This document shows positions 1,859-54,420 of a DNA stretch of 64,000 nt, piece by piece. Origin of the DNA: Chloroflexi bacterium CSP1-4 (lineage in GTDB: Bacteria; Chloroflexota; Limnocylindria; Limnocylindrales; CSP1-4); NCBI GenBank assembly GCA_001443375.1, contig LDXM01000006.1, positions 18,133-82,132 on the forward strand, read 5' to 3'. A model generated the notes under the pieces. It saw only the letters and a list, made by a program, of their open reading frames with translations. It made no database searches and was not told the DNA's origin. The stretch's first letter is position 1. Every line of letters starts with the position of its first letter. The translations under genes were made by a program, and so were the position numbers.

Positions 1859-1870
1859 GACCGGCGCCGC

Positions 1871-2596: not shown

Positions 2597-2610
2597 GGGT
2601 TGACGGGCCG

Positions 2611-2660
2611 TGCAGTCATCTGATAGCGTTGTACCATGCTACAACGATACCATGACTGCA
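2611..2660. promoter_or_regulatory. 50-bp nested palindrome in the hisA / yerC-hisG divergent intergenic region (candidate operator or RNA hairpin)
   Basis: Perfect 9-bp inverted repeat TGCAGTCAT...ATGACTGCA (2611-2619 / 2652-2660) enclosing a 26-bp near-palindrome TAGCGTTGTACCATGCTACAACGATA (2624-2649, 22/26 symmetric). TTGACG hexamer at 2599-2604 just upstream. Confidence 0.5.
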
Positions 2661-2685
2661 CGTCCTTCCGGTCGAGGCGCCCCTG

Positions 2686-3003: not shown

Positions 3004-3863
3004 CACCGGATCGCCTGCGCCTGGCCGTCCCCAACAAGGGCCGGCTGCTCGAGCCGACCCTGCGCCTCCTGCGCGACGCCGGGCTCGAGTTCGAGGACCA
3101 GTCGCGCGCGCTCGTCAGTCACGCCGAGAACGTGCCGCTCGACATCCTGCACGTTCGTACCGAGGACATCGTCGAGCTGGTGGGCGACGGCGTCGCCGAC
3201 CTCGGCATCACCGGTACGAATCTGCTGGCGGAGGCCGACGTCCAGCTTCCCGTGCGCCTGGAGCTGGGCTACGGCCGTTGTCGTCTCGAAGCCGCAGTCC
3301 CGGTTGACGATGAGGCGGTCTCATTCGAGCAGCTCGCCGGCCGGCGCCTGGCCACGAGCCACCCTGCGACGACGCGACGCTTCTTCGGCGAGCGCGGCAT
3401 CGACGTCGCCATCGTGCCGCTCAGTGGTTCCGTCGAGGTGGCGCCCCGTCTGGGCCTGGCCGAGGGGATCGTCGACCTCGTCTCCACGGGCTCGACACTG
3501 ATCATGAACGGGCTGCGCTCGGTCGGCTGTCTGCTCGAGAGCCAGGCCGTGCTGGTCGGCCGGCCCTCGGCCGTGGCGCGACGCGACGCCACGGTCGACG
3601 AGGTCGTGACGGTGCTCGGCGCGGTCGTCGCCGGCCGGCGCCGGAAGTACCTGATGATGAACGCACCGCGCCGAGCGCTCAGCGCCATCGAGGCGATCCT
3701 GCCCGGGCTCGCATCGCCGAGCGTCATCCCGCTCGCCCACGACGACATGGTCGCCGTCCACGCCGTGGTCGAGGACGCGGACGTATGGCGCATGCTCCCG
3801 CCGCTGCGCGCGGCCGGGGCGTCGGGCATCCTCGTGGTGCCCATCGAGAAGCTCGTCCCGTGA
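3000..3863 (+). CDS. hisG: ATP phosphoribosyltransferase, long form
   Basis: 287 aa. Catalytic HisG domains plus C-terminal regulatory domain. First gene of a chain of overlapping his genes. Confidence 0.9.
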   Translation: MTPDRLRLAVPNKGRLLEPTLRLLRDAGLEFEDQSRALVSHAENVPLDILHVRTEDIVELVGDGVADLGITGTNLLAEADVQLPVRLELGYGRCRLEAAVPVDDEAVSFEQLAGRRLATSHPATTRRFFGERGIDVAIVPLSGSVEVAPRLGLAEGIVDLVSTGSTLIMNGLRSVGCLLESQAVLVGRPSAVARRDATVDEVVTVLGAVVAGRRRKYLMMNAPRRALSAIEAILPGLASPSVIPLAHDDMVAVHAVVEDADVWRMLPPLRAAGASGILVVPIEKLVP

Positions 3864-5200
3864 GCGTCGCCTTCGCGCGCCTCCGCCGCGTCCGCCTGGC
3901 CGACTGCTCCGTGACCGAGCGCGCCGCGCTCGTCGAGCGCAGCGCGAGCGCCTCGTCGGACGTGCGGGAGGGCGCCCGTGCGATCGTCGACGAGGTTCGG
4001 CGCGGCGGGGACGCCGCCCTGCGCGCGGCGAACGCCCGGTTCGGCGGTGGGCTTGCCCCCAGCGCCGGCGTGCCGGCACCGCTGCGCGTCTCCGCCACGG
4101 AGCTGGCCGCCGCCCGGGATGCCCTGCCCGATGTTCTGCGGGACGCCCTGCTCGCGATGGCCCGCAACATCGAGGCCTTCCACGCCGTCCAGGTGCCGCC
4201 ACGCGAGCAATGGGTCCAGGTCGCCCCGGGCATCCGGGTCGGGCGCGCCTGGCGAGCGCTCGACCGCGTCGGCGCCTACGTCCCCGGTGGCGAAGCCTCC
4301 TACCCCTCGTCACTCCTCATGAGCGCCATCCCGGCTCGCCTGGCGGGTGTCCGGGAGCTGGTCGTGGCCAGCCCCGCCGGGCGCGACGGACGCGTCTCAA
4401 CGGCGCTCCTCGGCGCCGCGGGGCTCATGGGCGTCGACGAGTTCTACGCCATGGGCGGAGCCCAGGCCATCGGCGCCCTGGCCCACGGCACGGAGAGCAT
4501 CGGGCCTGTGGACCGCATCGTCGGTCCGGGCAACGCCTGGGTGACGGCGGCCAAGCTGGAGGTCCTGGGCACAACCTCGATCGACTTCCCCGCCGGTCCG
4601 TCCGAGGTGATGGTCCTTGCCGACGGGACCGCCGAGCCGGCCCACGTCGCCGCCGACCTGCTCAGCCAGGCTGAGCACGGGCCCGATTCGGCTGCCGTCC
4701 TCGTGACCACCTCGCCCGTCCTCGCCGACGCCGTCGAGGCCGAGGTCGCCCGCCAGCTGCCGGCCCTGCCTCGCCAGGCGTTCCTGCAGGCCTCACTGGC
4801 CTCGGCCGGCCTCGTAGTGGAGGCAGCCGACCTCGACGAAGCGCTCGACTTCGTCAACGCCTACGCACCGGAGCACCTGTCGATCGTCGTGGCCCGCGAT
4901 GATCGGGCGTTCGCGGCGGTCCGGCACGCGGGCTCCGTCTTCCTCGGTGCCTGGGCGCCCGAGTCGGCCGGGGACTATGCGACGGGATCGAACCATGTCC
5001 TGCCCACCGGCCGCCTGGCGCGCGCCTACGGTGCGCTCGGCGTGGAGTCCTTCGGCAAGTGGGTCCAGGTGCAGCGGGTGACGCGCGAGGGCTTGGCCGC
5101 CATCCGGCACACGGTCGCGGTCGTGGCGGAAGCGGAGGGCCTGACCGCCCACCGCCGCGCCGTGGACATCCGCTTCGAGATGGGAGACGCCGCGCCATGA
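3860..5200 (+). CDS. hisD: histidinol dehydrogenase
   Basis: Conserved HisD core (GPGNAWVTAAK, SQAEHGPDS). Start placed at GTG 3860 overlapping the hisG stop. The ORF-track Met at 3785 lies inside hisG. Confidence 0.85.
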   Translation: MSVAFARLRRVRLADCSVTERAALVERSASASSDVREGARAIVDEVRRGGDAALRAANARFGGGLAPSAGVPAPLRVSATELAAARDALPDVLRDALLAMARNIEAFHAVQVPPREQWVQVAPGIRVGRAWRALDRVGAYVPGGEASYPSSLLMSAIPARLAGVRELVVASPAGRDGRVSTALLGAAGLMGVDEFYAMGGAQAIGALAHGTESIGPVDRIVGPGNAWVTAAKLEVLGTTSIDFPAGPSEVMVLADGTAEPAHVAADLLSQAEHGPDSAAVLVTTSPVLADAVEAEVARQLPALPRQAFLQASLASAGLVVEAADLDEALDFVNAYAPEHLSIVVARDDRAFAAVRHAGSVFLGAWAPESAGDYATGSNHVLPTGRLARAYGALGVESFGKWVQVQRVTREGLAAIRHTVAVVAEAEGLTAHRRAVDIRFEMGDAAP

Positions 5201-6297
5201 CCGATGCCGCCCGCCGCACCGGTACCACCCAGGTCTACACCTGGGAACCCTCCAACCAGGCCATCGCCGCGCGGTACGGCGTGCGCCCCGAGGATGTCGT
5301 GCGCTTCGACACGAACACCTCGCCGGCCGAGCCGGCCGGGCTGGCCGGCGCGCTCGCGGGGCCGTTCGACCCGAGCCTCAACGAGTACCCCGACAGCGAG
5401 TACGCGGAGCTCACCGCGGCGGCCGCCGCGTACACGGGCGTCGACCCGGGCGAGATCGTCGTCGGCGCCGGCGCCGACGAGGTCCTCGACATCATCGCCA
5501 AGACCTTCCTGCCGGCCGCCGGCGCGGCGATCGTGCCCATCCCGACCTACGGCATGTACGGTGTCCTGACATCGCAGCGTGCCGCCCGGGCGATCGCGGT
5601 CCCCCGGCGCGGGACAGACGGCGCCTTCGGGCTCGACCTGGATCGCCTCCTCCCCCTCCTGGCCGAGGCGCAGGTCGTGTGGCTCGCGGTGCCCAACAAC
5701 CCGACCGGCGCGGATGAGCCGGAGGCCAACCTGCTGGCGCTCCTCGACGCCGCCGCGGCGCTCGGGCCCCAGGCACCGGCGATCGTCGTGGACGAGGCCT
5801 ACCACGAGTTCACCGGACGGACGGCCATCCCGCTGCGCGACCGCTATCCGCATCTCATCGTCGTGCGCACGCTCTCCAAGGCCTTCGCCCTGCCCGGCAT
5901 CCGCATCGGCTATGCCGTGGCCGCCCGCGCGACGATCGCGCGCCTCGAACGCGTCCGGCCGCCGGGCAGCGTCTCCACGGTCTCGGCGACCATCGGCGCG
6001 GCGGCGCTGCGAGCGCCGGCGACCGCCGTCGAGAATGTGCGGCGGCTGGTCGAGGAACGGAGCCGCTTCGCCGCCGCGCTCACCGCCGCCGGGTGGACGC
6101 CGCATCCCTCGGTCACGAACTTCCTCCTCGTGCGCATCGGCAGCCACGAGCAGGCCGAGGAAGCCGCCGAGCGGCTGCTGCACCGCGGCCTGGTGCCGCG
6201 CACGTTCGGGCCGGCCAACCCGCTGCGCGGCCACCTGCGCCTGACGGTGCGCTCCGCGGCCGAAAACGCGCGGCTCGTCGAGGCCATCGGCGCATGA
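5197..6297 (+). CDS. hisC: histidinol-phosphate aminotransferase
   Basis: Class II aminotransferase with the PLP lysine in TLSKAFALPGIRIGY. ATG 5197 overlaps the hisD stop (ATGA). Confidence 0.85.
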   Translation: MTDAARRTGTTQVYTWEPSNQAIAARYGVRPEDVVRFDTNTSPAEPAGLAGALAGPFDPSLNEYPDSEYAELTAAAAAYTGVDPGEIVVGAGADEVLDIIAKTFLPAAGAAIVPIPTYGMYGVLTSQRAARAIAVPRRGTDGAFGLDLDRLLPLLAEAQVVWLAVPNNPTGADEPEANLLALLDAAAALGPQAPAIVVDEAYHEFTGRTAIPLRDRYPHLIVVRTLSKAFALPGIRIGYAVAARATIARLERVRPPGSVSTVSATIGAAALRAPATAVENVRRLVEERSRFAAALTAAGWTPHPSVTNFLLVRIGSHEQAEEAAERLLHRGLVPRTFGPANPLRGHLRLTVRSAAENARLVEAIGA

Positions 6298-6914
6298 GCG
6301 GCACGATCGGTCGAGCGCGCACGGCCGAGGTCCGCCGCACCACGCGGGAGACCGACGTGACCGTGCGCCTCGACCTCGACGGCATCGGCACGGCCGACGT
6401 GCGCACCGGCGTGGGCCTCTACGACCACCTGTGGACCTCGTTCGCCCACCACGCCCTGGTGGACCTCGCCGTGGCCGCGACCGGCGACCTCGAGGTGGAC
6501 GAGCACCACACGGTCGAGGACGTCGCCCTCGTCGTGGGCAGTGCCCTCTCGCAGGCGCTCGGCGACCGCTCCGGTATCCGCCGCTTCGGCGACGCGTCCG
6601 TGCCCATGGACGAGGCGTTCGCGAGCGCCGTCGTGGACTGCTCCGGGCGGCCGTACGCCGTGCTCGACCTGGCCTTCCGCGGCGAGCGGATCGGCGCCCT
6701 CTCGACGCAGCTCATCGAGCACGCCCTCGAGGCGTTCGCGCGCTCGGCCGGCCTGACGCTCCACCTCCGCGCCGCCGGCCGCAACGACCACCACGTCGCC
6801 GAGGCCGCCTTCAAGGCGCTCGCGCTCGCCGTGCGCGAGGCCACCGAGTCCGATCCGCGGCGCAGCGGCATCGCCTCCACGAAGGGGACCCTCGACCCGG
6901 GGTCCGCCACGTGA
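6294..6914 (+). CDS. hisB: imidazoleglycerol-phosphate dehydratase
   Basis: 206 aa with the duplicated HisB motifs (RTTRETDV, DxHH, HHxxE). ATG 6294 overlaps the hisC stop. Confidence 0.9.
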   Translation: MSGTIGRARTAEVRRTTRETDVTVRLDLDGIGTADVRTGVGLYDHLWTSFAHHALVDLAVAATGDLEVDEHHTVEDVALVVGSALSQALGDRSGIRRFGDASVPMDEAFASAVVDCSGRPYAVLDLAFRGERIGALSTQLIEHALEAFARSAGLTLHLRAAGRNDHHVAEAAFKALALAVREATESDPRRSGIASTKGTLDPGSAT

Positions 6915-7528
6915 CCCCGGTGCGCGCGGCGGTCGTCGATCACGGCGCCGGCAACCTCGTCAGCGTGCGCGCCGCGCTCGAGGCGGCCGGAGCCGTCGTC
7001 ACCATCGCCAGCCGGCCCTCCGGCCTGGCCGGCGTGTCGCTCATCGTGGTCCCGGGCGTCGGCGCCAGCCGGCCGGCCATGGCGCGGCTGCGCCGGAGCG
7101 GGCTCGACGACGCGATCCGCGCGTCGCTCGACGACGGCGCCTGGTACCTCGGCATCTGCCTCGGCCTGCAACTCCTCTTCGAGCGCTCCGAGGAGGACGG
7201 TGCGGAACTGCTCGGCCTGCTCGGCGGCACGGTGCGCCCCATCGTCGGCGCGCCGCGGCTGCCACACATCGGCTGGAACGCCATCGAGCGTCGCCGCCGC
7301 CACTCCCTCCTCGAGGGCATCCCCGATGGAGCCGCCGCCTACTTCGTCCACTCCTTCGTGGGCGTCCCCGACGACCCGTCGGTGGTCCTCGCCCAGACCG
7401 AGCACGGGGGGCGCTTCCCGAGCGTCGTCGCGTCGGGCCGGCTGCTCGGCACGCAGTTCCACCCGGAGCGTTCCGGGAGCCGCGGGCTGCGCCTGCTCGC
7501 CAACGCCGTGGCCCTCGCGGGCGCCTGA
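6911..7528 (+). CDS. hisH: imidazole glycerol phosphate synthase, glutamine amidotransferase subunit
   Basis: Class I GATase with the catalytic Cys in LGICLGLQLL and the C-terminal HPE triad. GTG 6911 overlaps the hisB stop. Confidence 0.85.
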   Translation: MTPVRAAVVDHGAGNLVSVRAALEAAGAVVTIASRPSGLAGVSLIVVPGVGASRPAMARLRRSGLDDAIRASLDDGAWYLGICLGLQLLFERSEEDGAELLGLLGGTVRPIVGAPRLPHIGWNAIERRRRHSLLEGIPDGAAAYFVHSFVGVPDDPSVVLAQTEHGGRFPSVVASGRLLGTQFHPERSGSRGLRLLANAVALAGA

Positions 7529-7531
7529 GCG

Positions 7532-8308
7532 ATGCTGCTCCGTCGCGTCATCCCCTGCCTCGACGTGGCCGGCGGCCGCGTCGTGAAGGGCACGCGCTTC
7601 GTGGACTTGCGGGATGCGGGGGATCCGGCCGAGCTGGCGGCCCGCTATGCTGCGGCCGGTGCCGACGAGATCGTCCTCCTCGACATCACCGCCGCGCCGG
7701 AGGGCCGCGCGACGCTGCTGGAGCTGGTCGAGCGGACCGCGCGGCGGCTGTTCGTGCCCCTCACCGTGGGCGGCGGCGTGCGCTCCACGGCGGGCATGCG
7801 AGCGGTGCTCCGCGCCGGCGCCGACAAAGTGGCCGTGAACACGGCCGCCATCGCCGACCCGGGACTCATCCGTCGCTGCGCGCGCGTCTTCGGGCGGCAG
7901 TGCGTCGTCGTCGCCGTTGACGTGCGGGCCGTGTCGGCGGACGGCGGCTGGGAGGTGCTTGCCCGCGGCGGCCGGGACGCGACCGGCCTGGATGCCGTGG
8001 CCTGGGTTCGCCGCGCCGCCGGGCTGGGGGCCGGTGAGATCCTCCTCACGTCGATCGACCGCGACGGCACGCGCTCGGGGTTCGACCTGGACCTGCTGCG
8101 CGCCGTGACGGCGGTCGTGGATGTGCCGCTCATCGCGTCGGGCGGTGCGGGCACGCCCGCCGACATGGTGGCGGCCATCGTCGAGGGCGGCGCCGACGCC
8201 GTCCTCGCCGCGTCGGTCTTCCATCGCGGCATCCACTCGATCGCCTCGGTCAAGGCCGCCCTGGCGGCCGCGGGCGTGCCGGTGCGGCCCGTGGAGGAGG
8301 CCGCCTGA
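7532..8308 (+). CDS. hisF: imidazole glycerol phosphate synthase, cyclase subunit
   Basis: HisF (beta/alpha)8 barrel: [19 protein letters not shown]. Confidence 0.9.
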
Positions 8309-8985
8309 TGGCCGCCGCCCGAGTCGTCCCCCGCTGGGGCGCGGATGGGCTCGTCCCGGGCATCGTGCAGGACGCCGCCGATGGTCGGGTGCTGATGCTC
8401 GGCTGGCTCGACGCGGAGGCTCTCGCCGCGACGCTGGACAGCGGCCAGGTCCACTTCCACTCCCGCTCCCGCGACCGGCTGTGGCGGAAGGGCGAGGAGA
8501 GCGGCAACGTTCTGCGGCTCGTCGGGCTCGCCCTCGACTGCGACGGCGACGCGCTCCTGCTGACGGTGGAGCCGGCCGGCCCCGCCTGCCACACGGGCGA
8601 TCGCTCCTGCTTCGATGCCGGGCTCGCCCACGGGCGCACGGCGTTCGCCGCCGGGACGCCGCAGGGCTTCGGCTGGCTCGAGACCCTCTGGGCGACCATC
8701 GGCGATCGAGCCGAGCGGATGCCCCCGGACTCCTACACGACGAGCCTGCTGCGCGGCGGCGTGGACGCCGTGGCGCGCAAGGTCGCCGAGGAGGCGGTCG
8801 AGGTCGTCATCGCGGCCAAGGACGACGCTCATGCGGAGGCGGCCGATGCAGATCGCCCCTGGGCCAGTGCAGCGCTGGCCGGCGAGGTTGCCGACCTGCT
8901 GTACCACGCGCTGGTGCTGTGCGCCCAGCGGGGCCTCTCCCCGAGCGCAGTGCTCAACGTCCTCCGCGGCCGCCACGCGGCCTGA
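8308..8985 (+). CDS. hisIE: bifunctional phosphoribosyl-AMP cyclohydrolase / phosphoribosyl-ATP pyrophosphatase
   Basis: N-terminal HisI signature ([17 protein letters not shown]) fused to a C-terminal HisE MazG-like domain. ATGA overlap with hisF. Confidence 0.85.
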
Positions 8986-8987
8986 GC

Positions 8988-10277
8988 TCAGCGCCGGACG
9001 CGCCCGATGGCCAACCGCTTCTTCCCGGCACGCACCACGAGCCACTCCCCGGCGATCGGGGTCACGGCCTCATCCGTGGCCGTCACGCGCCGCTCGTTGA
9101 GGGAGAGCCCGCCCTGGGCGATGGCACGCCGTACCTCGCCGCTCGAGGCGTAGAGGCCCGACGCGAGCGCCACGGCCAGCGCCCCGGCGCGCAGGGCCTC
9201 GTCGCCGATCTCGAAGCCCCCGAGCGCGGCGTGAAGGTCGGCCAGCACCGCCGGGTCCTCGATGGGCCCGCCGCCGCCAAAGGCTGCTTCGGCCACGTGC
9301 ACCTGGCGCTGCGCCTCGTCGTTGCCGTGGACGCGCGCGGTCAGGTCGAACGCAAATGCGCGCTGGCCCGGGCGGCGTTCCGGGTGGGCGGCCTGCTCGG
9401 CCTCGAGCGCTTCGACCTCCTCGCGCCCGAGCAGCGTCAGCCAGCGCAGCAGCGTGCTCACCATCGCGTCCGGCTGGTTGAGCAAGTACTGGTAGAAGTC
9501 GTACGGCCGCGTCAGCTCCGGGTCGAGGAAGACGGCGCCCTGCTCGGTCTTGCCCATCTTCTCGCCGCCCGGCGCGATCAGCAGCGGGCTGCACAGCGCG
9601 TACGCGGCTGGCTCCTCCCCCTCTTCACGCCCCTCGACGCGCCGGATCAGCTCCAGACCGGCAGTGATGTTGCCCCACTGGTCGGCGCCGCCCATCTGCA
9701 TCTCCACCCCGTGCTCACGGAAGAGGTGCAGGAAGTCGGCCGCCTGCAGGGTCATGTAGCTGAACTCGGTGAAGGAGAGTCCCGCCGCCATGCGCTGCTG
9801 GACGGATTCCTTGGACAACATGTAGGCGACGGTGAAATGCTTCCCGATGTCGCGCAGGAACTCGAGCAGCGACCATCGGCCCAACCAGGCGCGGTTGTCG
9901 AGCATGACCGCCCCGGCGGAGCCGGCGGAGAAGTCGAGGAAGCGCCCCAGCTGGGTGCGGAACCGCGCCCCGTTCGCGTCGAGCGTCGCATCGTCGAGGA
10001 GGTTCCGCTCGGCGCTCTTGCCCGTCGGGTCGCCGATCATGCCGGTGCCGCCGCCGATCAGGGCGACCGGCCGCCCTCCGGCCCGCTGGAGGTGCGTGAG
10101 CAGGAAGACCTGCACGAGATGCCCGACGTGCAGTGAGGGCCCGGTCGGGTCGAAGCCGACGTAGGCGCTGATCGGTCCGCGCGCGAGGCGGGTCTCGAGA
10201 CCGGCCGTGCGGTCCTGGATCAGGCCGCGCCAGCCGAGCTCCTCGATGAACCGGCGGGAGTCGAGGGGGGCGGGCAT
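8988..10277 (-). CDS. tyrS: tyrosine--tRNA ligase
   Basis: Class I aaRS with HIGH-type motif (HVGHL), KMSKS-type motif (KMGKT) and a C-terminal S4 domain. Confidence 0.9.
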   Translation of the reverse strand: MPAPLDSRRFIEELGWRGLIQDRTAGLETRLARGPISAYVGFDPTGPSLHVGHLVQVFLLTHLQRAGGRPVALIGGGTGMIGDPTGKSAERNLLDDATLDANGARFRTQLGRFLDFSAGSAGAVMLDNRAWLGRWSLLEFLRDIGKHFTVAYMLSKESVQQRMAAGLSFTEFSYMTLQAADFLHLFREHGVEMQMGGADQWGNITAGLELIRRVEGREEGEEPAAYALCSPLLIAPGGEKMGKTEQGAVFLDPELTRPYDFYQYLLNQPDAMVSTLLRWLTLLGREEVEALEAEQAAHPERRPGQRAFAFDLTARVHGNDEAQRQVHVAEAAFGGGGPIEDPAVLADLHAALGGFEIGDEALRAGALAVALASGLYASSGEVRRAIAQGGLSLNERRVTATDEAVTPIAGEWLVVRAGKKRLAIGRVRR

Positions 10278-10411
10278 CGGCGGGCGAGCGGACCTCGGTG
10301 CAGCGGCCTGGGCGGAACGACGCGATCCCGTCGCGCGTCACTACCGAGCGCGGGTCGCCGGCGCCCATGAGAACGGAACAGCCGGCTGAGTATGGTAGAG
10401 TCCCGGGCCGT

Positions 10412-13126
10412 ATGCAAACCAGCCTCGCGCGCCGCAACGCGCGTCGCCGCAACGGCGGCCGACGGCGCGGCGGAGGGGCGGCTCGTGCCGCCGCTGTCAT
10501 TCTCCCTCTGTTCCTCTTCGTCACCTTCGTCGCGGTCGCCGGCGTGGCCTTCGTGGGGGCCGTTTCGGCCTATGCGTTCTACAGCCGGGACCTGCCCGAC
10601 GCCACGGACCTCGAGAAGATCGCCTTCAACGAGCAGTCGATCATCTACGACCGCACCGGCATCGTGGAGCTGGCGCGCTTCGGCGACCAGCGGCGCGAGA
10701 CGGTCACCTTCAACGAGATCCCGCCCGTCCTGCTCGACGCCACGACGGCGGTCGAAGACCGGTCCTTCTGGACCAACACCGGCTTCGACCCGGTGGGCAT
10801 CGCCGCCGCGGCCGTCGCCACCCTGAGGGGCGACCCTCGCGGCGGGTCGACGATCACCCAGCAGCTCGTGCGCCAGCGGCTCCTCGACGCGACGCTGGTG
10901 CAGGACCCGGCGCGCACGGTCGAGCGGAAGATCAAGGAGATCATCCAGTCGGTGCGCGTCACGCAGGCCTACCCCGGCCTCGAGGGCAAACAGCGCATCA
11001 TCACCGCGTACCTGAACCAGAACTTCTACGGCAACAACGATTACGGCATCAAGGCAGCCGCGAAGGACTACTTCGCCGTGGCCGACCTCAAGGACCTGAC
11101 GCTGGTCCAGGCGGCCGTCCTGGCCGCCATCCCCAAGTCGCCCACGAGCTTCGACCTCGTCCGCAACGCCGTCGCCCAGGAGGACGGGACGCTCATCGTG
11201 CCGGCCGACACGGACATCGCCAGGCGCCGCAACCTCGTGCTCGACCTCATGGAGGAGGGGCGCACGCCGATCAGCGACGAACGCGGCATCCGCTACTCCG
11301 CCGCCGACTTCGACGAGGCCCGGGCGTCGCCGATCATCCTCGCCCCGCGTGCCGTGCCCACCTGGAAGGCGCCGCACTTCGTGTGGCAGGTGCGCGAGCA
11401 GCTGACGTCGGTCCTCTGCGATCCCGGGGCCGGGACCTGCCCGGCCCTCGAGCACGGCGGCCTCAAGATCATCACCACCCTCGACTGGCGCCTCCAGGTG
11501 CTCGGCGAGCGTTGGGTCAGGGCCGCCGCCATCCTGCCCCACGCCAAGGATCCCGAGGCCTACGCGGCGAAGATCGGCGTCAAGTACCAGTCCTGGATGG
11601 CCAAACTGCGGACCAAGAACGTCTTCAACGGCGCGCTGGTCGCGATGGACTACGAGACCGGCGAGATCGTCGCCTACGTCGGATCGGCCGACTACTACGC
11701 GACCAAGGCCACGAAAGAGTTCCAGCCGCAGTTCGACGTCCTCGCCGACGGCTGGCGCCAGCCGGGCTCGGCCTTCAAGCCGTTCAACTACGTGACGGGC
11801 ATCGACGATCGCACGATCACCGCGGCGACGATGCTCATGGACGTCACGACGAACTTCGCCGCCAGCGGCAAGGAGTACGTGCCCACCGACTTCGACAACC
11901 TCGAGCGCGGTCCGGTCCGCGTCCGCAGCGCCCTGCAGTTCTCGCTCAACATCCCCTCCATCAAGACCCTCGCCTACAACGGCATCGACCACGTCTTCGA
12001 GGCGTCCAAGAAGATGGGCCTGCGCTTCCAGCGTGAGCGCACCGATGCCGGACTCTCGATGGCCATCGGGACGGTCGAGACGCATCCCGTGGATCTCGTG
12101 ACCGGCTACGCGACGATCGCCAACGGCGGTCGGTACATCGGCCACACGGCGATCCTGCGGGTGCTCGACGCGCAGGGGAAGGACGTCGTCTCGCCCTACA
12201 CCCCCCCGGCCGGGGAGCAGAGCGTCAGCCCGCAGGCGGCCTACATCATGACTGACATCCTCGAGGGGAACACCGACCCGAAGATCAACCCCTTCTGGGG
12301 CAAGTTCAACATCCTCGACAAGGACGGGAAGCGGCGGCCGGCGGCCCTCAAGACCGGTACCAACAACGACGCCAAGGACCTCAACGCTTACGGCTACATC
12401 GCGCCGCCCACGGCCGAGGGGCGCAAGCGCGGCGAGTACGCCCTCGCGGTGGGCGCCTGGAACGGCAACAGCGACAACACCGAGGTGAGTACGCCGCGCA
12501 ATCCGGTCTTCTCGCTCGACGTGCCGGCGCCCGTGTGGCAGGGCTTCCTGGTGCAGGCGACCAAGCAGTGGGAGATCCGCGATTTCGTGCGGCCCACGGG
12601 CATCACCGAGGCGACCGTGGATGCCTTCACCGGCATGGCGCCGGGCGCGTTCACGACCAGCACGATCGAGGAGCTGTTCATCGAGGGCACCGAGCCGCGC
12701 ATCCCCGACGACACGAAGTTCGCCCTCCAGATCGAGGAGGAGTCCGGGCTGCTGTGGGCCGAGGGCTGCAGCGGCACGCCGGTCACCCGCGGCTTCCTGG
12801 ACCTGTCTCGCGTGGAGTCGGCCTTCCCGCTCTGGCAGGAAGCGAACCGGGGCTGGATCGAGCGCGCGAAGCAGGGCCCCGGCGTCCGTGGCGGTCCCAA
12901 GGGCACCCGTACGACCTACTTCTACAATCTCGGCTACCACCCCTACGGCTCCACCTGGGGCGCCCCGTTCCCGCCCACAGAGACCTGTGTTCCTGCCCCC
13001 TCCCCGCTCCCGCCCGACACGCCGTTCCCGCCCGACACGCCGCTCCCGACCGACGCGCCACAAGCGAAGCACACGCCGAAGCCGAGGCCCACCGCGATCC
13101 CCGCACCGACGCCCGCCCCGACCTGA
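10412..13126 (+). CDS. class A penicillin-binding protein (bifunctional glycosyltransferase/transpeptidase)
   Basis: Arg-rich cytoplasmic N-terminus, one TM helix, GT51 motifs (EDRSFW, GGSTITQQL) and a transpeptidase domain. ATG 10412 is the first start clear of divergent tyrS. Pro-rich C-terminal tail. Confidence 0.85.
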   Translation: MQTSLARRNARRRNGGRRRGGGAARAAAVILPLFLFVTFVAVAGVAFVGAVSAYAFYSRDLPDATDLEKIAFNEQSIIYDRTGIVELARFGDQRRETVTFNEIPPVLLDATTAVEDRSFWTNTGFDPVGIAAAAVATLRGDPRGGSTITQQLVRQRLLDATLVQDPARTVERKIKEIIQSVRVTQAYPGLEGKQRIITAYLNQNFYGNNDYGIKAAAKDYFAVADLKDLTLVQAAVLAAIPKSPTSFDLVRNAVAQEDGTLIVPADTDIARRRNLVLDLMEEGRTPISDERGIRYSAADFDEARASPIILAPRAVPTWKAPHFVWQVREQLTSVLCDPGAGTCPALEHGGLKIITTLDWRLQVLGERWVRAAAILPHAKDPEAYAAKIGVKYQSWMAKLRTKNVFNGALVAMDYETGEIVAYVGSADYYATKATKEFQPQFDVLADGWRQPGSAFKPFNYVTGIDDRTITAATMLMDVTTNFAASGKEYVPTDFDNLERGPVRVRSALQFSLNIPSIKTLAYNGIDHVFEASKKMGLRFQRERTDAGLSMAIGTVETHPVDLVTGYATIANGGRYIGHTAILRVLDAQGKDVVSPYTPPAGEQSVSPQAAYIMTDILEGNTDPKINPFWGKFNILDKDGKRRPAALKTGTNNDAKDLNAYGYIAPPTAEGRKRGEYALAVGAWNGNSDNTEVSTPRNPVFSLDVPAPVWQGFLVQATKQWEIRDFVRPTGITEATVDAFTGMAPGAFTTSTIEELFIEGTEPRIPDDTKFALQIEEESGLLWAEGCSGTPVTRGFLDLSRVESAFPLWQEANRGWIERAKQGPGVRGGPKGTRTTYFYNLGYHPYGSTWGAPFPPTETCVPAPSPLPPDTPFPPDTPLPTDAPQAKHTPKPRPTAIPAPTPAPT

Positions 13127-46572: not shown

Positions 46573-47520
46573 ATGGGCGACAGGACCCTCGTGGTCGCGA
46601 TCGGCGGCAACTCGCTGATCAAGGACCCACGCCACCAGACGGTGCCGGACCAGATCGCCGCCCTGGCCGAGACGAGCGTGCACATCGCCAACGCCATCCG
46701 CGATGGCTGGCAGGTGGCCATCGGCCATGGCAACGGCCCCCAGGTCGGGTTCATCCTGCGCCGTTCCGAACTCGCCGCCCACGAACTCCACGAGGTCCCG
46801 CTCGACGTGTGCGACGCGGACACCCAGGGCGCCATCGGCTACGAGCTCCAGCAGAGCCTGGGCAACGACTTCCGGCGCATGGGCCTCGACCGCCAGGCGG
46901 TCACCGTGGTCACGCAGGTCGAGGTGGCGCGCGACGATCCGGCCTTCGGGCGCCCGACCAAGCCGATCGGCACGTTCATGGACGAGGCGCGCGCCATGCA
47001 GCGGCGCGACGGGGACGGCTGGGACGTCGTCGAGGACGCCGGCCGGGGCTGGCGGCGCGTCGTCGCCTCGCCACGCCCGCTGCGCATCGTCGAGGAACGT
47101 GCGGTCAAGGCCCTCCTGGCGGACGGGTTCGTGGTCATCACCGTGGGTGGCGGCGGGATCCCCGTCGTGGCCGACGAGACCGGCAGCCTGCACGGTGTCG
47201 CCGCGGTCATCGACAAGGACTACGCGTCCTCGCTGCTGGGCACGGTCGTGGGGGCAGAGGTCTTCGCCATCACCACCGCGGTCGAGCGGGTGGCGCTCGA
47301 CTGGGGCAAGCCGAGCCAGACCTGGGTGGATCGCCTGACCGTCGCCGAGGCGCGCGCCTACCTCGCCGAGGGCGGCCACTTCATGCCCGGCAGCATGGCA
47401 CCGAAGATCGAGGCCTGCCTCGAGTTCCTGGAGCGCGGCGGCTCGGAGGCGATCATCACCGCGCCGGCGAACCTGGAACTTGCCCTGGCCGGCCGGGCGG
47501 GGACGCGCATCGTCCCCTGA
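46573..47520 (+). CDS. arcC: carbamate kinase
   Basis: VVAIGGNSL, GHGNGPQVG and the amino-acid kinase fold. 315 aa. AAGGAGAG RBS. Confidence 0.85.
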   Translation: MGDRTLVVAIGGNSLIKDPRHQTVPDQIAALAETSVHIANAIRDGWQVAIGHGNGPQVGFILRRSELAAHELHEVPLDVCDADTQGAIGYELQQSLGNDFRRMGLDRQAVTVVTQVEVARDDPAFGRPTKPIGTFMDEARAMQRRDGDGWDVVEDAGRGWRRVVASPRPLRIVEERAVKALLADGFVVITVGGGGIPVVADETGSLHGVAAVIDKDYASSLLGTVVGAEVFAITTAVERVALDWGKPSQTWVDRLTVAEARAYLAEGGHFMPGSMAPKIEACLEFLERGGSEAIITAPANLELALAGRAGTRIVP

Positions 47521-47568
47521 GCCGGCCCCACGCGGTCGGTCCGGCGGTCGAACCGCTCGGTGGGAGTT

Positions 47569-47590
47569 CCCCCGCTACAGTGGGGGTTTC
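47569..47590 (+). terminator. candidate intrinsic terminator after carbamate kinase
   Basis: CCCCC-GCTACAGT-GGGGG stem-loop followed by TTTC, 50 nt after the arcC stop. Confidence 0.4.
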
Positions 47591-47682
47591 GGGAGCGCCC
47601 GAGGTGCGGCATGATAGCCCGCGTGGCACGCGCGGCGCCGCGGAGCGCCGACCGCTACGCAGGGACATCAGAGGAGGGTTCG

Positions 47683-47976
47683 ATGGCCACCTACGTTTCG
47701 CTGCTCAACTGGACCGATCAGGGGATCAAGGGGTACCGGGAAACGACGGCCAGGGCCGAGGCTGGGAAGGCGTTGGCTGCCAAGTTCGGAGGCCGCATCG
47801 TATCGATCTGGTGGACCATCGGGCCGTGCGACCTCGTTGCCGTGTCAGAGTTCCCGGACGACGAGTCGGCGACCGCGTTCGCGCTCGCTCTCGGCGCCGC
47901 CGGCAACATCCGGACGACCACGATGCGCGCCTTCGGGGCGGACGAGATGTCGGCGATCATCGCCCGGACTGGCTAG
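47683..47976 (+). CDS. GYD domain protein
   Basis: 97-aa ORF MATYVSLLNWTDQG...GNIRTTTMRAF matches the GYD family. AGAGGAGGG RBS. Confidence 0.65.
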   Translation: MATYVSLLNWTDQGIKGYRETTARAEAGKALAAKFGGRIVSIWWTIGPCDLVAVSEFPDDESATAFALALGAAGNIRTTTMRAFGADEMSAIIARTG

Positions 47977-47988
47977 CGCCCGGCGCCC

Positions 47989-48474
47989 GTGGAGGATCAA
48001 GAGTCGGCCGGCGCCCTGTCAACGCTCACCGCTCTCGTGGGCACCTGGCGCGGCAAGGGCACGGCCAGGCTTCCGTCGATGGGGGCGGTGGACTTCGACG
48101 AAGTGGTCCGCTTCTCGCGACGGAGCCCGAACTCGCTCGACTCCTGGCAGCGGGCCGTAGCCGCGGGCGACGGAACGATGCTCCACAGCGAGTCGGGGAT
48201 CTGGCGCGTGACCTCCACCGGTTCGCTGGAGGTCACGGTCGCCCTGCCCGGTGCGACCGAGGTGTCCGAAGGGAGCGTTGACGGGGCGACGATCCGGCTC
48301 GAGTCGACGGCGATCGGCCTGGCCGCCACCGGTGCCAAGCTCCGGCAGGCGACTCGGCGCTACGAGCTCCGCGGCGACTCGCTCGGCTACGACATCTCGA
48401 TCGCGACAGCGGAGCTCGCGCTTACCGCCCATATCAGCGCTGAGCTGCATCGGTCGGAGAGCCCCAGCCGCTGA
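47989..48474 (+). CDS. hypothetical protein, possibly nitrobindin-like beta-barrel (DUF1794)
   Basis: LVGTWRGKGT N-terminal motif typical of nitrobindin/THAP4-C-terminal-like barrels. GTG start. Weak assignment. Confidence 0.4.
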   Translation: MEDQESAGALSTLTALVGTWRGKGTARLPSMGAVDFDEVVRFSRRSPNSLDSWQRAVAAGDGTMLHSESGIWRVTSTGSLEVTVALPGATEVSEGSVDGATIRLESTAIGLAATGAKLRQATRRYELRGDSLGYDISIATAELALTAHISAELHRSESPSR

Positions 48475-48537
48475 TCGATGGCGCCCCCGGAAGCCATCAG
48501 GCGGTCGGGGTCAGCCCGAACACGATCCTGCGGAGGC

Positions 48538-48576
48538 CCAGCACGCGGACGACGCATTCGCGTGGGACGCGACGGC
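48538..48576. repeat. 39-bp imperfect direct repeat, copy R1
   Basis: CCAGCACGCGGACGACGCATTCGCGTGGGACGCGACGGC. 33/39 identical to the copy at 49944-49982. Contains CACGCG-N11-CGCGTG inverted repeat. Confidence 0.6.
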
Positions 48577-48636
48577 GGCTTCCTCCGCGAGGGCCGAGAT
48601 CCTGACCGCGGCGCAGCCGGCCGTCACATCTATTCG

Positions 48637-48664
48637 TTGACAATGCATCAGAGTCTGATATAGT
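48637..48664 (+). promoter_or_regulatory. near-consensus sigma-70-type promoter (TTGACA-N16-TATAGT) driving a leaderless padR transcript
   Basis: TTGACA 48637-48642 and TATAGT 48659-48664 in an unusually AT-rich patch. padR ATG at 48672, 7 nt after the -10 and with no RBS, implies a leaderless mRNA. Confidence 0.6.
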
Positions 48665-48671
48665 CCGCGCC

Positions 48672-49028
48672 ATGGAAGCCGTCGAACAGCCGCAACGAGT
48701 CCCACCGTTGTCGCGGACGGCGATGCACGTCCTCATCGCGATCGGCCCGGAGGAGCGGCACGGGTACGCGATCATGCGCGAGATCGTGCGGATGACCGAG
48801 GGGGCGACGCGGCTCGGACCCGGCGGCGTCTACACCACGATCAGGCGACTCCTGGACGACGGGCTGATCGAGGAGTGCGACGAGCGTCCGGACCCCGAGC
48901 TGGACGATCAGCGCCGACGCTACTACCGGCTCACTGGGACCGGGCGGGCCGTGGCGGGGGCGGAGGTCCGTCGCCTCGAGAGCCTCGTCCGCGCGGCACG
49001 CCCGTGGGCGCTCGAGGCCGTCGAGTGA
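48672..49028 (+). CDS. PadR family transcriptional regulator
   Basis: Winged HTH PadR signature (HGYAIMREI...GVYTTIRRLLDDGLIE...RRRYYRLT). Confidence 0.85.
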   Translation: MEAVEQPQRVPPLSRTAMHVLIAIGPEERHGYAIMREIVRMTEGATRLGPGGVYTTIRRLLDDGLIEECDERPDPELDDQRRRYYRLTGTGRAVAGAEVRRLESLVRAARPWALEAVE

Positions 49029-49873
49029 TCCCGCGGGACGGGGGCCACGAGCGCGTGTACCGCTGGCTCCTGCGCCTGTACCCGGCCAAGTTCCGGGCCC
49101 GGTTCTCGAACGAGATGGTGCAGCTCTTCAGCGACCAGCTCCGCGATGCGCGAACCGGCGGTGCGCCGGCCGGGGCCGCGAGAACGTGGCTGAGGACCCT
49201 CGGCGACCTGGCCGTCACTGCCGCGGCCGAGCACGTACGGAGGGATCGAACCGTGGCTCATTCGCTTGCCGCACCGTCGATCACGAGCCGGGCCCTCGGG
49301 ACCCTCGGGATCCTGGGCGGCGCCGTCCTGGTGGCGGCCTTCCTGCCCTTCATCCCCTGGGGCCCGGACTTCTTCAACCTCCGGCTGGCGTTGTTCAACG
49401 CAGGCGCGATGGCGATCGTCATCGCCCTGCATCGCCGACAGGCGTCGGTTGCTCCGGCGCTCGCGCTGCTGGCCGCGGTCCCGGCCTTGCTTGCCAACGC
49501 GTGGCACCTCGTCATGATCGTCATCGTGGTCAGCCGGCCCGGGCCACCGGGCGTCGGGGACTACGGGCCCGTCTACATGGCCGCGAGCTCGGCCATGTGG
49601 CTGTCCGACGCCTGGTTCGGGCTGGTGACCCTGCGCCTGGGTGTCGTGAGCCGCTTGGGCCCGCTCGCGCTGACGATCGGCTCCGTGCTCCCGTTCTTCG
49701 GACAGGACCAGGTGCTCGCGTTCCTCGGACCGGACCTGTCGGCGATCATCGGCCCCCTGGCGCTCGCCGGCGTGGCCCTGAACGGGCTCGGCTGGATCGT
49801 CCTGGGGATCGTCGTGGCCACCCGACGCCGCGCGTCGAAGACGCCGTCGCAGGAGGTCCGGCCCGAAGGCTAG
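49025..49873 (+). CDS. PadR-associated integral membrane protein
   Basis: GTG 49025 overlaps the padR stop. N-terminal YRWLLRLYPAKFRARFSNEM (permease-prefix-like) then 5-6 TM helices. Confidence 0.6.
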   Translation: MIPRDGGHERVYRWLLRLYPAKFRARFSNEMVQLFSDQLRDARTGGAPAGAARTWLRTLGDLAVTAAAEHVRRDRTVAHSLAAPSITSRALGTLGILGGAVLVAAFLPFIPWGPDFFNLRLALFNAGAMAIVIALHRRQASVAPALALLAAVPALLANAWHLVMIVIVVSRPGPPGVGDYGPVYMAASSAMWLSDAWFGLVTLRLGVVSRLGPLALTIGSVLPFFGQDQVLAFLGPDLSAIIGPLALAGVALNGLGWIVLGIVVATRRRASKTPSQEVRPEG

Positions 49874-49900
49874 CGTAGGGCGCCGGATGCGAAACCCGAC

Positions 49901-49927
49901 CGTGCTGTTCTGGCGCCCTCCGGACGG
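49901..49927. repeat. duplicate of tRNA-Arg 3' end plus trailer (att-like direct repeat, left copy)
   Basis: CGTGCTGTTCTGGCGCCCTCCGGACGG matches 51096-51122 (CGTGCTGTTTCTGGCGCCCCCGGACGG), which spans the last 16 nt of tRNA-Arg and 11 nt of trailer. Confidence 0.6.
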
Positions 49928-49943
49928 CCTTGGGGGAACGGCA

Positions 49944-49982
49944 CCAGCACGCGGACGACGCACTCGTGTAGTACGCGGCAGC
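49944..49982. repeat. 39-bp imperfect direct repeat, copy R2
   Basis: CCAGCACGCGGACGACGCACTCGTGTAGTACGCGGCAGC. The first 19 nt are identical to R1. Confidence 0.6.
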
Positions 49983-50005
49983 ATCCAAGCGAAGGACCGA
50001 GCCGA

Positions 50006-50935
50006 TCAGACCTCGCCTTCGAAGTAGCCGTCGTCGACTCGTTTCACGGCAAGGCTTCGACCCGCTCGGACGCCGATGCCGTAGTCGTACATGAGCCGAG
50101 TAAGGGTGCGCCCATCGACAAGGACGATCCGTCGGCTGATTCGCCTCACGTACTCCTCGGCTTCCGGTGTGAAGTGCGACGTCGTCAAGAACACTCCCTT
50201 GCTGGCCCGTTGGCCCTCGAGGCTCCCAGCGAAGGCCTGGAGTGCCGGCCGGCCAACCCCGGTCTTCGCCTGGTACTTCTTAGCCTGGATGTACACAGCG
50301 TCGAGACCGAGCTTGTCCTCATCGATCACGCCGTCGATACCCTCATCGCCGGTCAGCTTGGTAACGCGCAGCGACGTCTCGTCGGTAGAACTCCCGTAAC
50401 CCATCGCCCCGAGGAGTTCGACCACGAGGCGCTCGAACGCCTCCCATGGGTATCCCGGCGCCTGGAGCCGGTCCAGCATGTCCGCCTCGATCGACCGACG
50501 GAGGGCGTCATAGGTCAGGTAGAGGAGTTCCTCTGGATTCTGATCGGGGATCGGGACCGGAGCCCCTTCGCTCCCGGTCTTCGGCTTCGACTTCGCCCGG
50601 AAGGCCTCGAAACCCGGGTAGCCCATGAGGAATGCGACGTTGACCTTGGCAGGCTTCTTGGCAAGGGCCTCACGTCCCACGTCGGTGATCTGCACCCGAC
50701 CCCGAGCCGGACGTGAGAGCAGTCCCGCCTTGCTCAGGTAGGTCACGGCCCAATGGGTCCGGTTGACGAAGATCGACTGACTCCCGGACAGGAGCATCCG
50801 CTGATGATCTTCCGAGGTCAGGTGGAACTGCTCAGCGAGCGGGTCCGTGATGTCGGGGACGATCCGTCGCACTTGGCCGTCGCTGAGCAGTTGGAGCACC
50901 GGAAGCATCAGCGTCTGGTAGTCCGGGATCGCCAT
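50006..50935 (-). CDS. mrr: Mrr family Type IV restriction endonuclease
   Basis: N-terminal Mrr_N winged helix (MAIPDYQTLMLPVLQLL) and C-terminal Mrr catalytic domain (DGVIDEDKLGLDAVYIQAKKY). Start ATG 50935. The upstream 27 aa of the ORF track are rejected. Confidence 0.8.
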   Translation of the reverse strand: MAIPDYQTLMLPVLQLLSDGQVRRIVPDITDPLAEQFHLTSEDHQRMLLSGSQSIFVNRTHWAVTYLSKAGLLSRPARGRVQITDVGREALAKKPAKVNVAFLMGYPGFEAFRAKSKPKTGSEGAPVPIPDQNPEELLYLTYDALRRSIEADMLDRLQAPGYPWEAFERLVVELLGAMGYGSSTDETSLRVTKLTGDEGIDGVIDEDKLGLDAVYIQAKKYQAKTGVGRPALQAFAGSLEGQRASKGVFLTTSHFTPEAEEYVRRISRRIVLVDGRTLTRLMYDYGIGVRAGRSLAVKRVDDGYFEGEV

Positions 50936-51106
50936 GGCCGGGAGTATGGCACCGGACGCGACGTCGGAGGCGTTCTTGGCGCGCTCCTCTGACGCCCCCG
51001 ACGCCCCTTCGCGCACGCTTCCAGCACTGTGACGATTAAACTGGCTTGATATTCGGCGGCAACCACTTGACAGCTGAGGCCGCCGACGACCCTGGCGTGC
51101 TGTTTC

Positions 51107-51182
51107 TGGCGCCCCCGGACGGACTCGAACCGCCGACGCAGGCCTTAGGACGGCCTCGCTCTATCCACTGAGCTACGGGGGC
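51107..51182 (-). tRNA. tRNA-Arg (anticodon CCT), CCA encoded
   Basis: Hand-folded cloverleaf: acceptor GCCCCCG/CGGGGGC, D arm GCTC/GAGC, anticodon stem AGGCC/GGCCT with loop GTCCTAA, T arm GGCGG/CCGTC with loop TTCGAGT, 3' GCCA. Confidence 0.85.
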
Positions 51183-51252
51183 GCGCTCCCATCATCCTAC
51201 GCTGCCGCCGGAAAACGGCTGACGGAGCCGGCCGCCCTACAATCCCCGGGCG

Positions 51253-53814: not shown

Positions 53815-54420
53815 CTAACCGCGGCGCGGACCGCCCTTGACGGCGCGGCGGTCGCGCTCGAAGTCGCGGTAGAAGGCGGAGGCGGTGGGGGTGGACTGGC
53901 CCTGGTATTTCGAGCCCAGCTCCTTCGAGCCGTAGGGGCGCTCGACCGGGCTGGTCATGGCGAAGAAGCTGATCTGGCCGATCTTCATGCCGAAGTAGAG
54001 CGCGATGGGCAGGTTGGCCACGTTCGACAGCTCGAGGGTGAGGTTGCCCTTCCAGCCGGGATCCACGTAGCCGGCCGTGGAGTGGATGAGCAGCCCCAGC
54101 CGGCCTAGCGAGCTCTTTCCCTCGAGGCGCGCGACGATGTCGTCGGGCAGCTCCACCCACTCGAGCGTCTGGCCCAGCACGAACTCACCGGGATGGAGGA
54201 TGAAGGCCTCCTCGTCCTCGACCGTCACCAGCTCGGTCAGGTCCGGCTGCGCGGTCCGCGGGTCGATGTAGGGGTAGCGATTGTTGCGGAAGACGCGGAA
54301 CTCGCGATCGAGGTGGAGGTCCACCGAGGAGGGCTGCAGGCAGCTCGGGTCGTAGGGGTCGATGCGCACGCGCCCATCCTCGAGGGCGGCGCGGATGTCG
54401 CGATCGGACAGGACGGCCAT
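53815..54420 (-). CDS. dcd: dCTP deaminase (possibly bifunctional dCTP deaminase/dUTPase)
   Basis: Dcd/dUTPase fold: [28 protein letters not shown]. Confidence 0.85.

Follow-up and report, generated by a model that had tools for sequence, protein, structure and literature searches.

How does a single restriction gene come to lie between two copies of the end of a tRNA gene, with no integrase beside it? The question is raised by an islet next to tRNA-Arg(CCT) in a 64,000-nt stretch from Chloroflexi bacterium CSP1-4 (contig LDXM01000006.1, positions 18,133 to 82,132 of the forward strand; hereafter the window, to whose first letter all coordinates refer). A preliminary description of this sequence saw in the islet, which carries only the Type IV restriction gene mrr, the decayed remnant of an integrative element that kept nothing except its defence cargo. 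We reach a related and more specific view: the islet is very likely the stranded right end of an element that inserted at tRNA-Arg(CCT) by means of a large serine recombinase (LSR) and was then reduced by deletion to mrr. The earlier reading is supported in its essentials by an intact element at the same tRNA in a relative (L050; L numbers designate the loci compared), by intermediates in two others (L093 and L115) and by a shared right arm. It requires two amendments: the lost integrase would be an LSR, not one of tyrosine type, and the islet does not stand alone, a second cassette following it.

The repeat and the gene between its copies

The islet is bounded by a direct repeat, copy B at the tRNA end and copy A at the distal end (Table 1). 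The preliminary description had located both copies and had given their make-up as 16 nt of tRNA plus 11 nt of trailer, all of which stands; the two mismatches that it counted are in reality two 1-nt indels. With one such indel per copy, 26 of 28 alignment columns match (20 of 27 positions when ungapped): one indel lies within the T-run of the trailer, and the other is within the core (CCGTCCGG-A-GGGCGCC, in tRNA orientation). The local alignment score of the repeat is 43, to be compared with a null mean of 23.5 (sd 2.3, maximum 34) obtained by Markov-shuffling the 12 kb 3' of the tRNA 300 times, and with a score of 23 on the opposite strand. The repeat is present in every same-species contig that has an identical Mrr and still reaches the tRNA, and the best match to copy A outside these is the tRNA end plus trailer of L092 (96% over 26 nt). 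There is also a tentative fourth core-like copy inside the islet, badly decayed, with a local alignment score of 24 that is reached by 0.7% of 1000 shuffles and is therefore marginal.

Between copies A and B, the only open reading frame (ORF) with coding signal is mrr, which is intact. Its product has an N-terminal winged-helix domain (Mrr_N, PF14338, 3.6e-28, residues 6-92) and a C-terminal PD-(D/E)xK nuclease domain (Mrr_cat, PF04471, 4.6e-33); the PADLOC profile mREase_IV matches it over its full length (5.1e-76, positions 1-316 of the 317-position profile). Domains and ORF content together bear out the claim of a single minus-strand mrr gene in the 1.17 kb between the copies. Mrr is presumably still active as a stand-alone enzyme that restricts modified DNA. 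The public annotation starts the gene at a GTG at 51016 and so gives a protein of 336 aa; because close homologues have 309-312 aa, and homology to relatives begins ~22 nt before the ATG at 50935, this annotation is probably too long and the N-terminal extension (50936-51016) spurious.

The gene also stands apart in composition, as the preliminary description had stated: its GC content is 63.5% as compared to 72.6±2.5% for ~50 window ORFs (z = -3.6), the lowest of all, and the islet as a whole (64.1%) is the lowest-GC 1-kb stretch of the 64 kb. Likewise, the AT-rich patch reported on the 5' side of mrr was located, with the strings TTGACAGCTG (51068) and GATATTCGG (51049) both in place. We found no match to a sigma-70-type consensus promoter in this patch. 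We dropped the idea that the patch serves as promoter of mrr or belongs to the mobile module: besides the missing consensus match, the patch has no homologue elsewhere and is absent in L092.

An insertion hotspot at tRNA-Arg(CCT)

Mrr homologues and the proteins of the flanks assign the window to uncultured Chloroflexota, class Ca. Limnocylindria. On the 5' side of the tRNA, the order tRNA-Arg(CCT)-Grx-CcdA-TlpA...MBL-Dcd is kept in ~60 Limnocylindria species, the CcdA of the nearest species representative being only 66% identical to that of the window. On the 3' side, no gene is held in common with the window in any of ~60 related species; the tRNA therefore marks a break in gene order. In non-redundant loci, amounting to 465 kb of 3' and 589 kb of 5' sequence, we looked for matches to the 15-nt core CCGTCCGGGGGCGCC with no more than a single error. 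On the 3' side there are 41 copies in the orientation of the tRNA and one that is inverted; on the 5' side there are none in either orientation. Extra core copies occur in 24 of ~62 loci, several with three or four copies 0.4-4 kb apart and one (L114) with five. This distribution is the footprint of repeated site-specific insertion. It also tells against an objection foreseen in the preliminary description, that the 27-bp similarity might be part of a widespread intergenic motif: the core is nearly confined to the tRNA 3' side, in direct orientation.

These observations bear on whether mrr might be a native or anciently resident gene, with the 27-nt similarity a product of chance or of a common intergenic motif. 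Weak repeats are abundant in high-GC genomes, and L092 has mrr at this tRNA without a distal repeat. Against this, the repeat scores ~8 sd above the null, the core has its 41 direct copies on the tRNA 3' side as against one anywhere else, mrr is missing at this locus in ~57 related species, and the gene is a low-GC outlier not only in the window but also in L092, L093 and L050. We find a native origin barely credible. The case of L092 deserves particular mention, as mrr at this site in a relative, with no repeats and with native composition, had been named at the outset as evidence that would tell against an integrative origin. The L092 locus does lack the distal repeat, yet its mrr is compositionally foreign (GC 61.4% versus 69-70% in the flanks); for this reason, the L092 state looks like loss of the distal site, not a native gene.

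Members of this Mrr clade are found at this tRNA in five species (the window, L092, L093/L094, L115 and L050), and one of them reveals the setting from which the islet may have come. In L050, a complete chromosome from a metagenome-assembled genome (OY970218.1), an intact 8.7-kb element lies at the same tRNA, with the first core at +8733. A 517-aa ORF abutting the tRNA encodes an LSR with Resolvase, Recombinase and Zn_ribbon_recom domains; it is followed, in order from the tRNA, by genes for a helix-turn-helix (HTH) protein, an AAA_25 ATPase, a Hypoth_Ymh protein and, last, Mrr. The L050 Mrr is 64% identical to that of the window, and after its gene come 77 nt and then the tRNA-end repeat: both the geometry and the right-end sequence are as in the window, where copy A follows the mrr stop codon at a distance of 78 nt. 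The right-end sequence ...GCCGTTCCCC(C)AAGG(A)|CCGTCCGG... is common to the window, L050 and L093; right-arm homology reaches ~50 nt further in L008, L010 and L027. At the other end of the gene, the mrr leader (50936-50957) is shared by the mrr copies of L092, L093 and L050.

A second intact element, in L114 (JGI 3300086005), has a 511-aa LSR, the same backbone order as L050 and other cargo, with the first core ~8.25 kb from the tRNA. The intact relatives, then, measure 8-9 kb and are composed of an LSR, small HTH and HNH-like genes, an AAA_25 ATPase and finally cargo. In both L050 and L114 the LSR gene is the first after the tRNA and is transcribed towards it, so that its 3' end runs into the antisense strand of the tRNA. 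We also observed in L114 (locus 638-11570) that four more cores follow the intact 8.3-kb element and bound recombinase-less cassettes (SnoaL-like, Tricorn-like, and one that is empty); this locus is the clearest case of a new element stacked ahead of old remnants.

Fragments of the LSR gene lie against the tRNA or a core copy, always in the same orientation, in L027, L093, L024 (twice), L004, L047, L008, L060 and L115; the second fragment of L024 sits after an internal core copy. In L093 and L115 a truncated LSR remnant is followed by mrr (82% and 81% identical to that of the window) and then by the same arm and core. In L092, mrr (88% identical) begins 44 nt after the tRNA, and the distal repeat is lost. 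Compared by sequence, these loci form a graded series: an intact element (L050), an LSR fragment with mrr (L093, L115), mrr with both junctions (the window), and mrr with one junction (L092). In two of the fragments (L027 and L093), similarity to the LSR stops near codon 275, at ~+725 to +733 nt counted from the tRNA end; such breakpoints could mark a deletion hotspot, or selection that keeps the C-terminal DNA-binding half. We considered whether a deletion shared by L027 and L093 might be a sign of mobilization in trans, and rejected this: the sequences beyond the breakpoints differ, and hence the deletions are separate.

The history that we propose would begin with insertion of an 8-9-kb element at the tRNA-Arg(CCT) 3' end through its LSR. 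Deletions in the lineage of the window would then have removed the recombinase and the backbone, leaving the right arm, the two junction repeats, and mrr preceded by its short leader. The outer unit, with its genes for a PadR protein and a membrane protein, has a similar arm and a core that has decayed. The repeats, the gene content, the composition, the arm homology, and the intact and intermediate relatives are direct observations; LSR catalysis of the integration, and the order of events, we infer from them.

The right arm and the 3' end of the recombinase gene

We translated the arms that lie upstream of the core copies from the strand opposite to that of the tRNA, keeping the frame of the LSR ORF as it passes into the core (WRPRT), and found that they fall into classes. 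The mrr-type class encodes WRPRTV(L/P)GER(R/A)S(H/R)AD(P/A)L(G/A)WY(V/A)(G/A)A(A), and a second class encodes WRPRTDSGPQ(Q/Y)(Q/P)R(S/G)VLDWYLEVG; the position of the stop codon is conserved within each class. When the right arm of L050 or L114 is joined to the left end of the same element, the result is one continuous LSR reading frame with an arm-type tail. By this comparison, the right arm in the window is identified as the remnant of a 23-24-codon C-terminal tail that the LSR ORF would have in the circular form. It thus seems that the recombinase gene contains the attachment (att) site within its 3' end, such that integration would swap the last 23-24 residues of the protein. In the window the arm has lost this frame through the 1-nt insertion of copy A, which agrees with an inactive remnant.

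Database homologues of the LSR end in three ways: in the tRNA-Arg antisense peptide ...WRPRTDSNRRR.P, as expected of the integrated form; in a tail that resembles the arm-encoded one (P0144, ...RPRTDSEVRWGEALDWWVGAS...); or in peptides like the antisense of other tRNA 3' ends. Examples of the last kind are the endings ..PQGDSNP, ..EGFEPPT and ..WDSNPRHED among P0123, P0128, P0131, P0134, P0141 and P0166. The whole LSR clade may target tRNA genes.

The same reasoning accounts for a feature that the preliminary description had called odd, namely that the repeat runs past the tRNA 3' end. The extension is present. The trailer of the window tRNA reads GAAACAGCACGCC... and that of copy A GAACAGCACGGTC..., and both resemble LSR 3' ends that abut the tRNA (L114 GAACAACGCAGCC, L115 TAAGCAACGCAGC, L092 GAACAGCAC). 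The situation is clearer in L115, in which the core and 12 nt of trailer are duplicated, and recognisable LSR-3' coding remnants follow both copies. In our view, the additional 11 nt most likely represent the left arms (3' ends of the recombinase gene) of two related elements that arrived in succession; since each trailer would derive from such an arm, the repeat continues past the tRNA. The trailer of copy A (GAACAGCACG) is, then, probably the left end of the next cassette rather than the right boundary of the mrr cassette itself.

Direct repeats of 16-27 nt from a tRNA 3' end are the textbook signature of a tyrosine integrase, and serine recombinases have been described as not known (PMC4383910), or only rarely known (PMC3218068), to target tRNA genes. 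The locus could on these grounds be a classical tyrosine-integrase island or prophage remnant in which the LSR genes are unrelated passengers. However, we found no Phage_integrase (tyrosine) domain in the scanned ORFs of the intact L050 and L114 elements; the LSR gene or its fragments always stand exactly at the tRNA/core junction and read into it; the arm encodes a continuation of the LSR ORF; and many LSR homologues end in tRNA-antisense peptides. We consider such an origin very improbable.

A different question is whether the cassette can still move. Lacking an integrase, it might depend on an incoming LSR that acts in trans or moves it along with a neighbour, and arrays might be built by capture. 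Both of its junctions are kept. Most of the cassettes in the arrays (41 cores, 24 of ~62 loci) are without a recombinase, and only L050 and L114 are intact; mrr is 85.5% identical between the window and L092, neither of which has an LSR, in flanks that are ~70% identical; and in streptococci there are documented cases in which a cis-mobilizable element (CIME) is mobilized by accretion (PMC5704250). On the other side, the distal core of the window has a 1-nt insertion and its arm is out of frame, the distal site of L092 is wholly lost, the deletions and junction partners of L093, L115 and L027 differ in a manner that better fits independent decay, and no circular or empty forms are present in the contigs searched. 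Continued mobility seems to us unlikely. Indeed, the cassette itself is probably no longer mobile, given the insertion in its distal core and the lost frame of the tail-coding arm. By a broader speculation that we would equally not favour, the tRNA-Arg(CCT) locus is a cargo-accumulating platform run by an LSR clade specialised for tRNA 3' ends, with cassettes that are still movable and with tail rewriting that could act as a switch of direction or stability; if true, this would be an integron-analogous system built on a serine recombinase. An integron cassette array in the proper sense was rejected: the boundaries are tRNA-end direct repeats preceded by coding-type arms, and no IntI was seen.

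Returning to the stranded right end of an LSR element as the preferred origin, its transfer between species is suggested by differing degrees of divergence. Nucleotide identity on the conserved side of the tRNA is 66-73% among the window, L050, L027, L092 and L093; LSR remnants are 88.5-91% identical between species, and mrr in L092 and L093 is 85.5% and 77% identical to that of the window. The excess of mrr identity over that of the flanks is suggestive of horizontal transfer.

Several points weigh against this account. Mrr could be a slowly evolving protein, so its excess identity over the flanks is not proof of transfer. The common core of at least 16 nt (27-28 nt with the trailer in the window and L115) is atypical for serine integrases, and the recombination chemistry is in consequence assumed. 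Serine integrases normally do not target attL, which makes the formation of tandem arrays hard to explain. The 138-nt spacer has no homologue in any fetched locus, and in L092 homology to the window skips over it, from 51097 to 50957. The same Mrr clade also occurs away from tRNA-Arg, and therefore mrr spreads by more than one route: proteins 77-80% identical to that of the window are encoded at other loci (L116/L117 and L118) with no tRNA-Arg or core repeat nearby, beside an IS3-family transposase and an SLFN_AlbA_2 gene in L116/L117 and beside a split rarA-like gene in L118.

The remaining adverse points come from searches, two of which, for an empty tRNA-Arg site in close relatives and for the integrase elsewhere, had been proposed in the preliminary description. 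Searching for proteins identical to Mrr brought up 12 contigs, and the same search for the neighbouring GYD protein 22, so that 34 same-species contigs were read in all; no empty site was found among them, the same arrangement being seen wherever they reach the site, and none represents a strain without mrr, only occupied sites or unrelated variation. An empty junction would join 51107 to 49900, i.e., tRNA|GAACAGCACGG (the tRNA and then GAACAGCACGGTCGGG), and a circle would join 49928 to 51106. The attP or circular pattern GTTCCCCNNGGNCCGTCCGGGGGCGCC has no matches in viral contigs and five in metagenome contigs, all five of which are right-end junction or array forms; no circular junction or excision product was therefore present in the contigs searched. 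In L050, the 346 nt beyond the element matched no other locus and gave no empty-site comparison. Finally, tblastn with the L050 LSR found no homologue and no recognisable remnant in the 64 kb, and so it is through the right arm, the mrr module and the trailer that the islet is tied to the LSR family. In 41 further window ORFs scanned against Pfam, housekeeping families appear among the 25 of 68 families listed.

Related elements, the outer cassette and the flanks

The islet is a known kind of object and an ordinary outcome of element decay, and the family of its parent element is an unusual variant. Among known objects, it is closest in form to CIMEs: remnants of integrative and conjugative (ICE) or integrative and mobilizable elements that have attL and attR, are without integration and transfer genes, and are often in tandem (PMC5704250). 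The window, too, has attL and attR (with the 1-nt insertion in the core of copy A) and no integration or transfer genes, and comparison with the relatives points to origin from a complete element by deletion. Further likenesses are the tandem placement with another remnant at a tRNA 3' end and the accessory, here restriction, cargo. The differences are that the parent of the islet has a serine rather than a tyrosine recombinase, that no conjugation genes are recognised, that the host is one of the Chloroflexota rather than the Firmicutes, and that the distal site is damaged. The features of an LSR element proper (Resolvase, Recombinase and zinc-ribbon recombinase domains) are found in L050 and L114 and not in the window, consistent with its status as a remnant; the short common core of 2 to ~8 bp is not found.

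As in islands of the Islander type (PMC4383910), the foreign DNA lies between an intact tRNA gene and a 3' fragment displaced from it in direct orientation, whereas the tyrosine integrase gene that Islander requires within the island is missing; the integrase-less islet would be filtered out. The tycheposons and tRNA islands of Prochlorococcus are similar in that successive integrations push older elements outward, that partial tRNAs separate the units, and that there are degenerate elements, defence cargo and a replication-type ATPase aboard. They differ in lineage, backbone and att organisation: 910 of 937 tycheposon-type elements use tyrosine recombinases (bioRxiv 10.1101/2020.12.28.424599), and in the present family the recombinase ORF itself spans the att site.

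The pairing of a serine recombinase with a tRNA gene is described as rare, the examples being mycobacterial actinomycete ICEs (AICEs) in tRNA-Leu and phage phiRSM1 in tRNA-Ser (PMC3218068); another source describes serine recombinases as not known to target tRNA genes (PMC4383910). Serine integrases usually share cores of 2-8 bp with their targets (PMC8092301; PMC5704250); 5-8 bp is given as the normal length, and insertion normally disrupts ORFs (PMC8092301). The AICEs and phiRSM1 resemble the present family in tying a serine-family recombinase to site-specific insertion in a tRNA gene. In our case the tRNA is Arg-CCT, the phylum and backbone are different, arrays have up to five cores, the core is at least 16 nt, and the att site appears to be inside the 3' end of the recombinase gene. 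A parallel to this last feature is integration-dependent immunity in mycobacteriophages, where attP lies inside a gene and integration alters the C-terminus of the protein (PMC8092301); there too, an att site in a coding 3' end means that integrated and circular forms encode different C-terminal tails. In the mycobacteriophages, however, the gene is that of the repressor (with a degradation tag on int) and the integrase is of tyrosine type, whereas here it is the serine recombinase gene itself.

The significance of the islet is that of a defence gene outliving the mobile element that delivered it, a relic easily missed by island finders that require an integrase. In the series that leads from an intact element by way of a truncated recombinase to bare cargo, one can follow how defence genes settle permanently in the chromosome. 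The islet also exposes a family of serine recombinases that target a tRNA gene, a pairing called unknown or rare, with a long shared core and an att site inside the recombinase gene. One tRNA is seen to be a lineage-wide hotspot in an abundant, uncultured class of soil and freshwater Chloroflexota, where arrays of as many as five small cassettes build up. As tools for genome engineering, serine integrases whose natural targets are defined and conserved are also of practical interest.

Table 1. Features of the tRNA-Arg(CCT) array and its distal flank, listed from the tRNA outward
Feature	Position	Strand	Remarks
tRNA-Arg(CCT)	51107-51182	minus	Intact, CCA encoded; ARAGORN; integration target; same tRNA adjoins Grx-CcdA-TlpA in ~60 Limnocylindria species
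Copy B, attL-side repeat	51096-51122	minus	Last 16 nt of tRNA (core CCGTCCGGGGGCGCCA) and 11-nt trailer GAAACAGCACG
Spacer with AT-rich patch, 138 nt	50958-51095		Not in conserved mrr module
Tentative fourth core-like copy	50977-51004	minus	CGTCGGGGGCGTCAGAGGAGCGCGCCA; badly decayed; alignment to tRNA end, marginal evidence
Conserved mrr leader	50936-50957	minus	CCGGTGCCATACTCCCGGCC ahead of ATG; pairwise alignments; BLAST boundary at 50957
mrr, Type IV (modification-dependent) restriction endonuclease, 309 aa	50006-50935	minus	Sole cargo gene; Pfam, PADLOC, lowest GC
Right arm (P arm) of putative lost element	49928-50005	minus	Aligns with right-end junctions of L050, L093, L008, L010, L027
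Copy A, attR-side repeat	49901-49927	minus	Core with 1-nt insertion and trailer GAACAGCACG
Second cassette	48495-49900	plus	Membrane protein, PadR, promoter, arm remnant
Membrane protein gene	49025-49873		In second cassette
PadR gene	48672-49028		In second cassette; Pfam PadR
Near-consensus promoter	48637-48664		Ahead of PadR
Arm remnant of second cassette	48538-48576		Homologous to 49944-49982
Copy C, outermost decayed core	48478-48494	minus	Reverse complement GCTTCCGGGGGCGCCAT; abuts stop codon of chromosomal nitrobindin-like gene
Nitrobindin-like (THAP4_heme-bd) gene	47989-48474	plus	Pfam; flank beyond array; beside array in all same-species contigs

Beyond copy A, the genes for PadR and the membrane protein form the outer and presumably older cassette of a two-cassette array, with copy C as its decayed end; the mrr islet is the inner, tRNA-proximal unit, and hence probably the younger. 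A 39-nt stretch of the arm next to mrr is repeated in the outer cassette with 85% identity, and in sister strains the repeat extends over 66 nt at 82%. Strains L082 and L083 have a perfect 15-nt match to the core CCGTCCGGGGGCGCC at the position of copy C, in an outer cassette that is ~1 kb longer. The GC content of the outer cassette (71.7%) is that of native DNA, and neither of its genes is at this locus in any other species compared. The PadR promoter (TTGACA, 16 nt, TATAGT, ending 7 nt before the ATG) stands out in a genome of 72% GC, and a leaderless transcript is expected from it.

Further strain-level variation was noted on the distal flank. In L106 (JGI 3300025160) the nitrobindin-like gene is broken by an IS630-type DDE_3 transposase. 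In L099, L101 and L102, a gene for a 920-aa NB-ARC/TPR (STAND) protein and an SCO4226-like gene lie between the carbamate kinase and GYD genes; both are missing in the window (47520-47683) and in L100, a strain-level indel of a possible defence gene.

The gap between the tRNA and Grx, on the 5' side, varies from ~70 nt (51183-51252 in the window) to ~4 kb (L002-L061, L093); in L093 it contains three unannotated ORFs. The tRNA may have a second variable spot here, opposite the first. Further along the conserved side, dcd is intact in the window (53815-54420), and in L002, L008, L035, L043, L048 and L057 it matches as two pieces ~1.03 kb apart, which suggests an intein or other insertion inside the gene.

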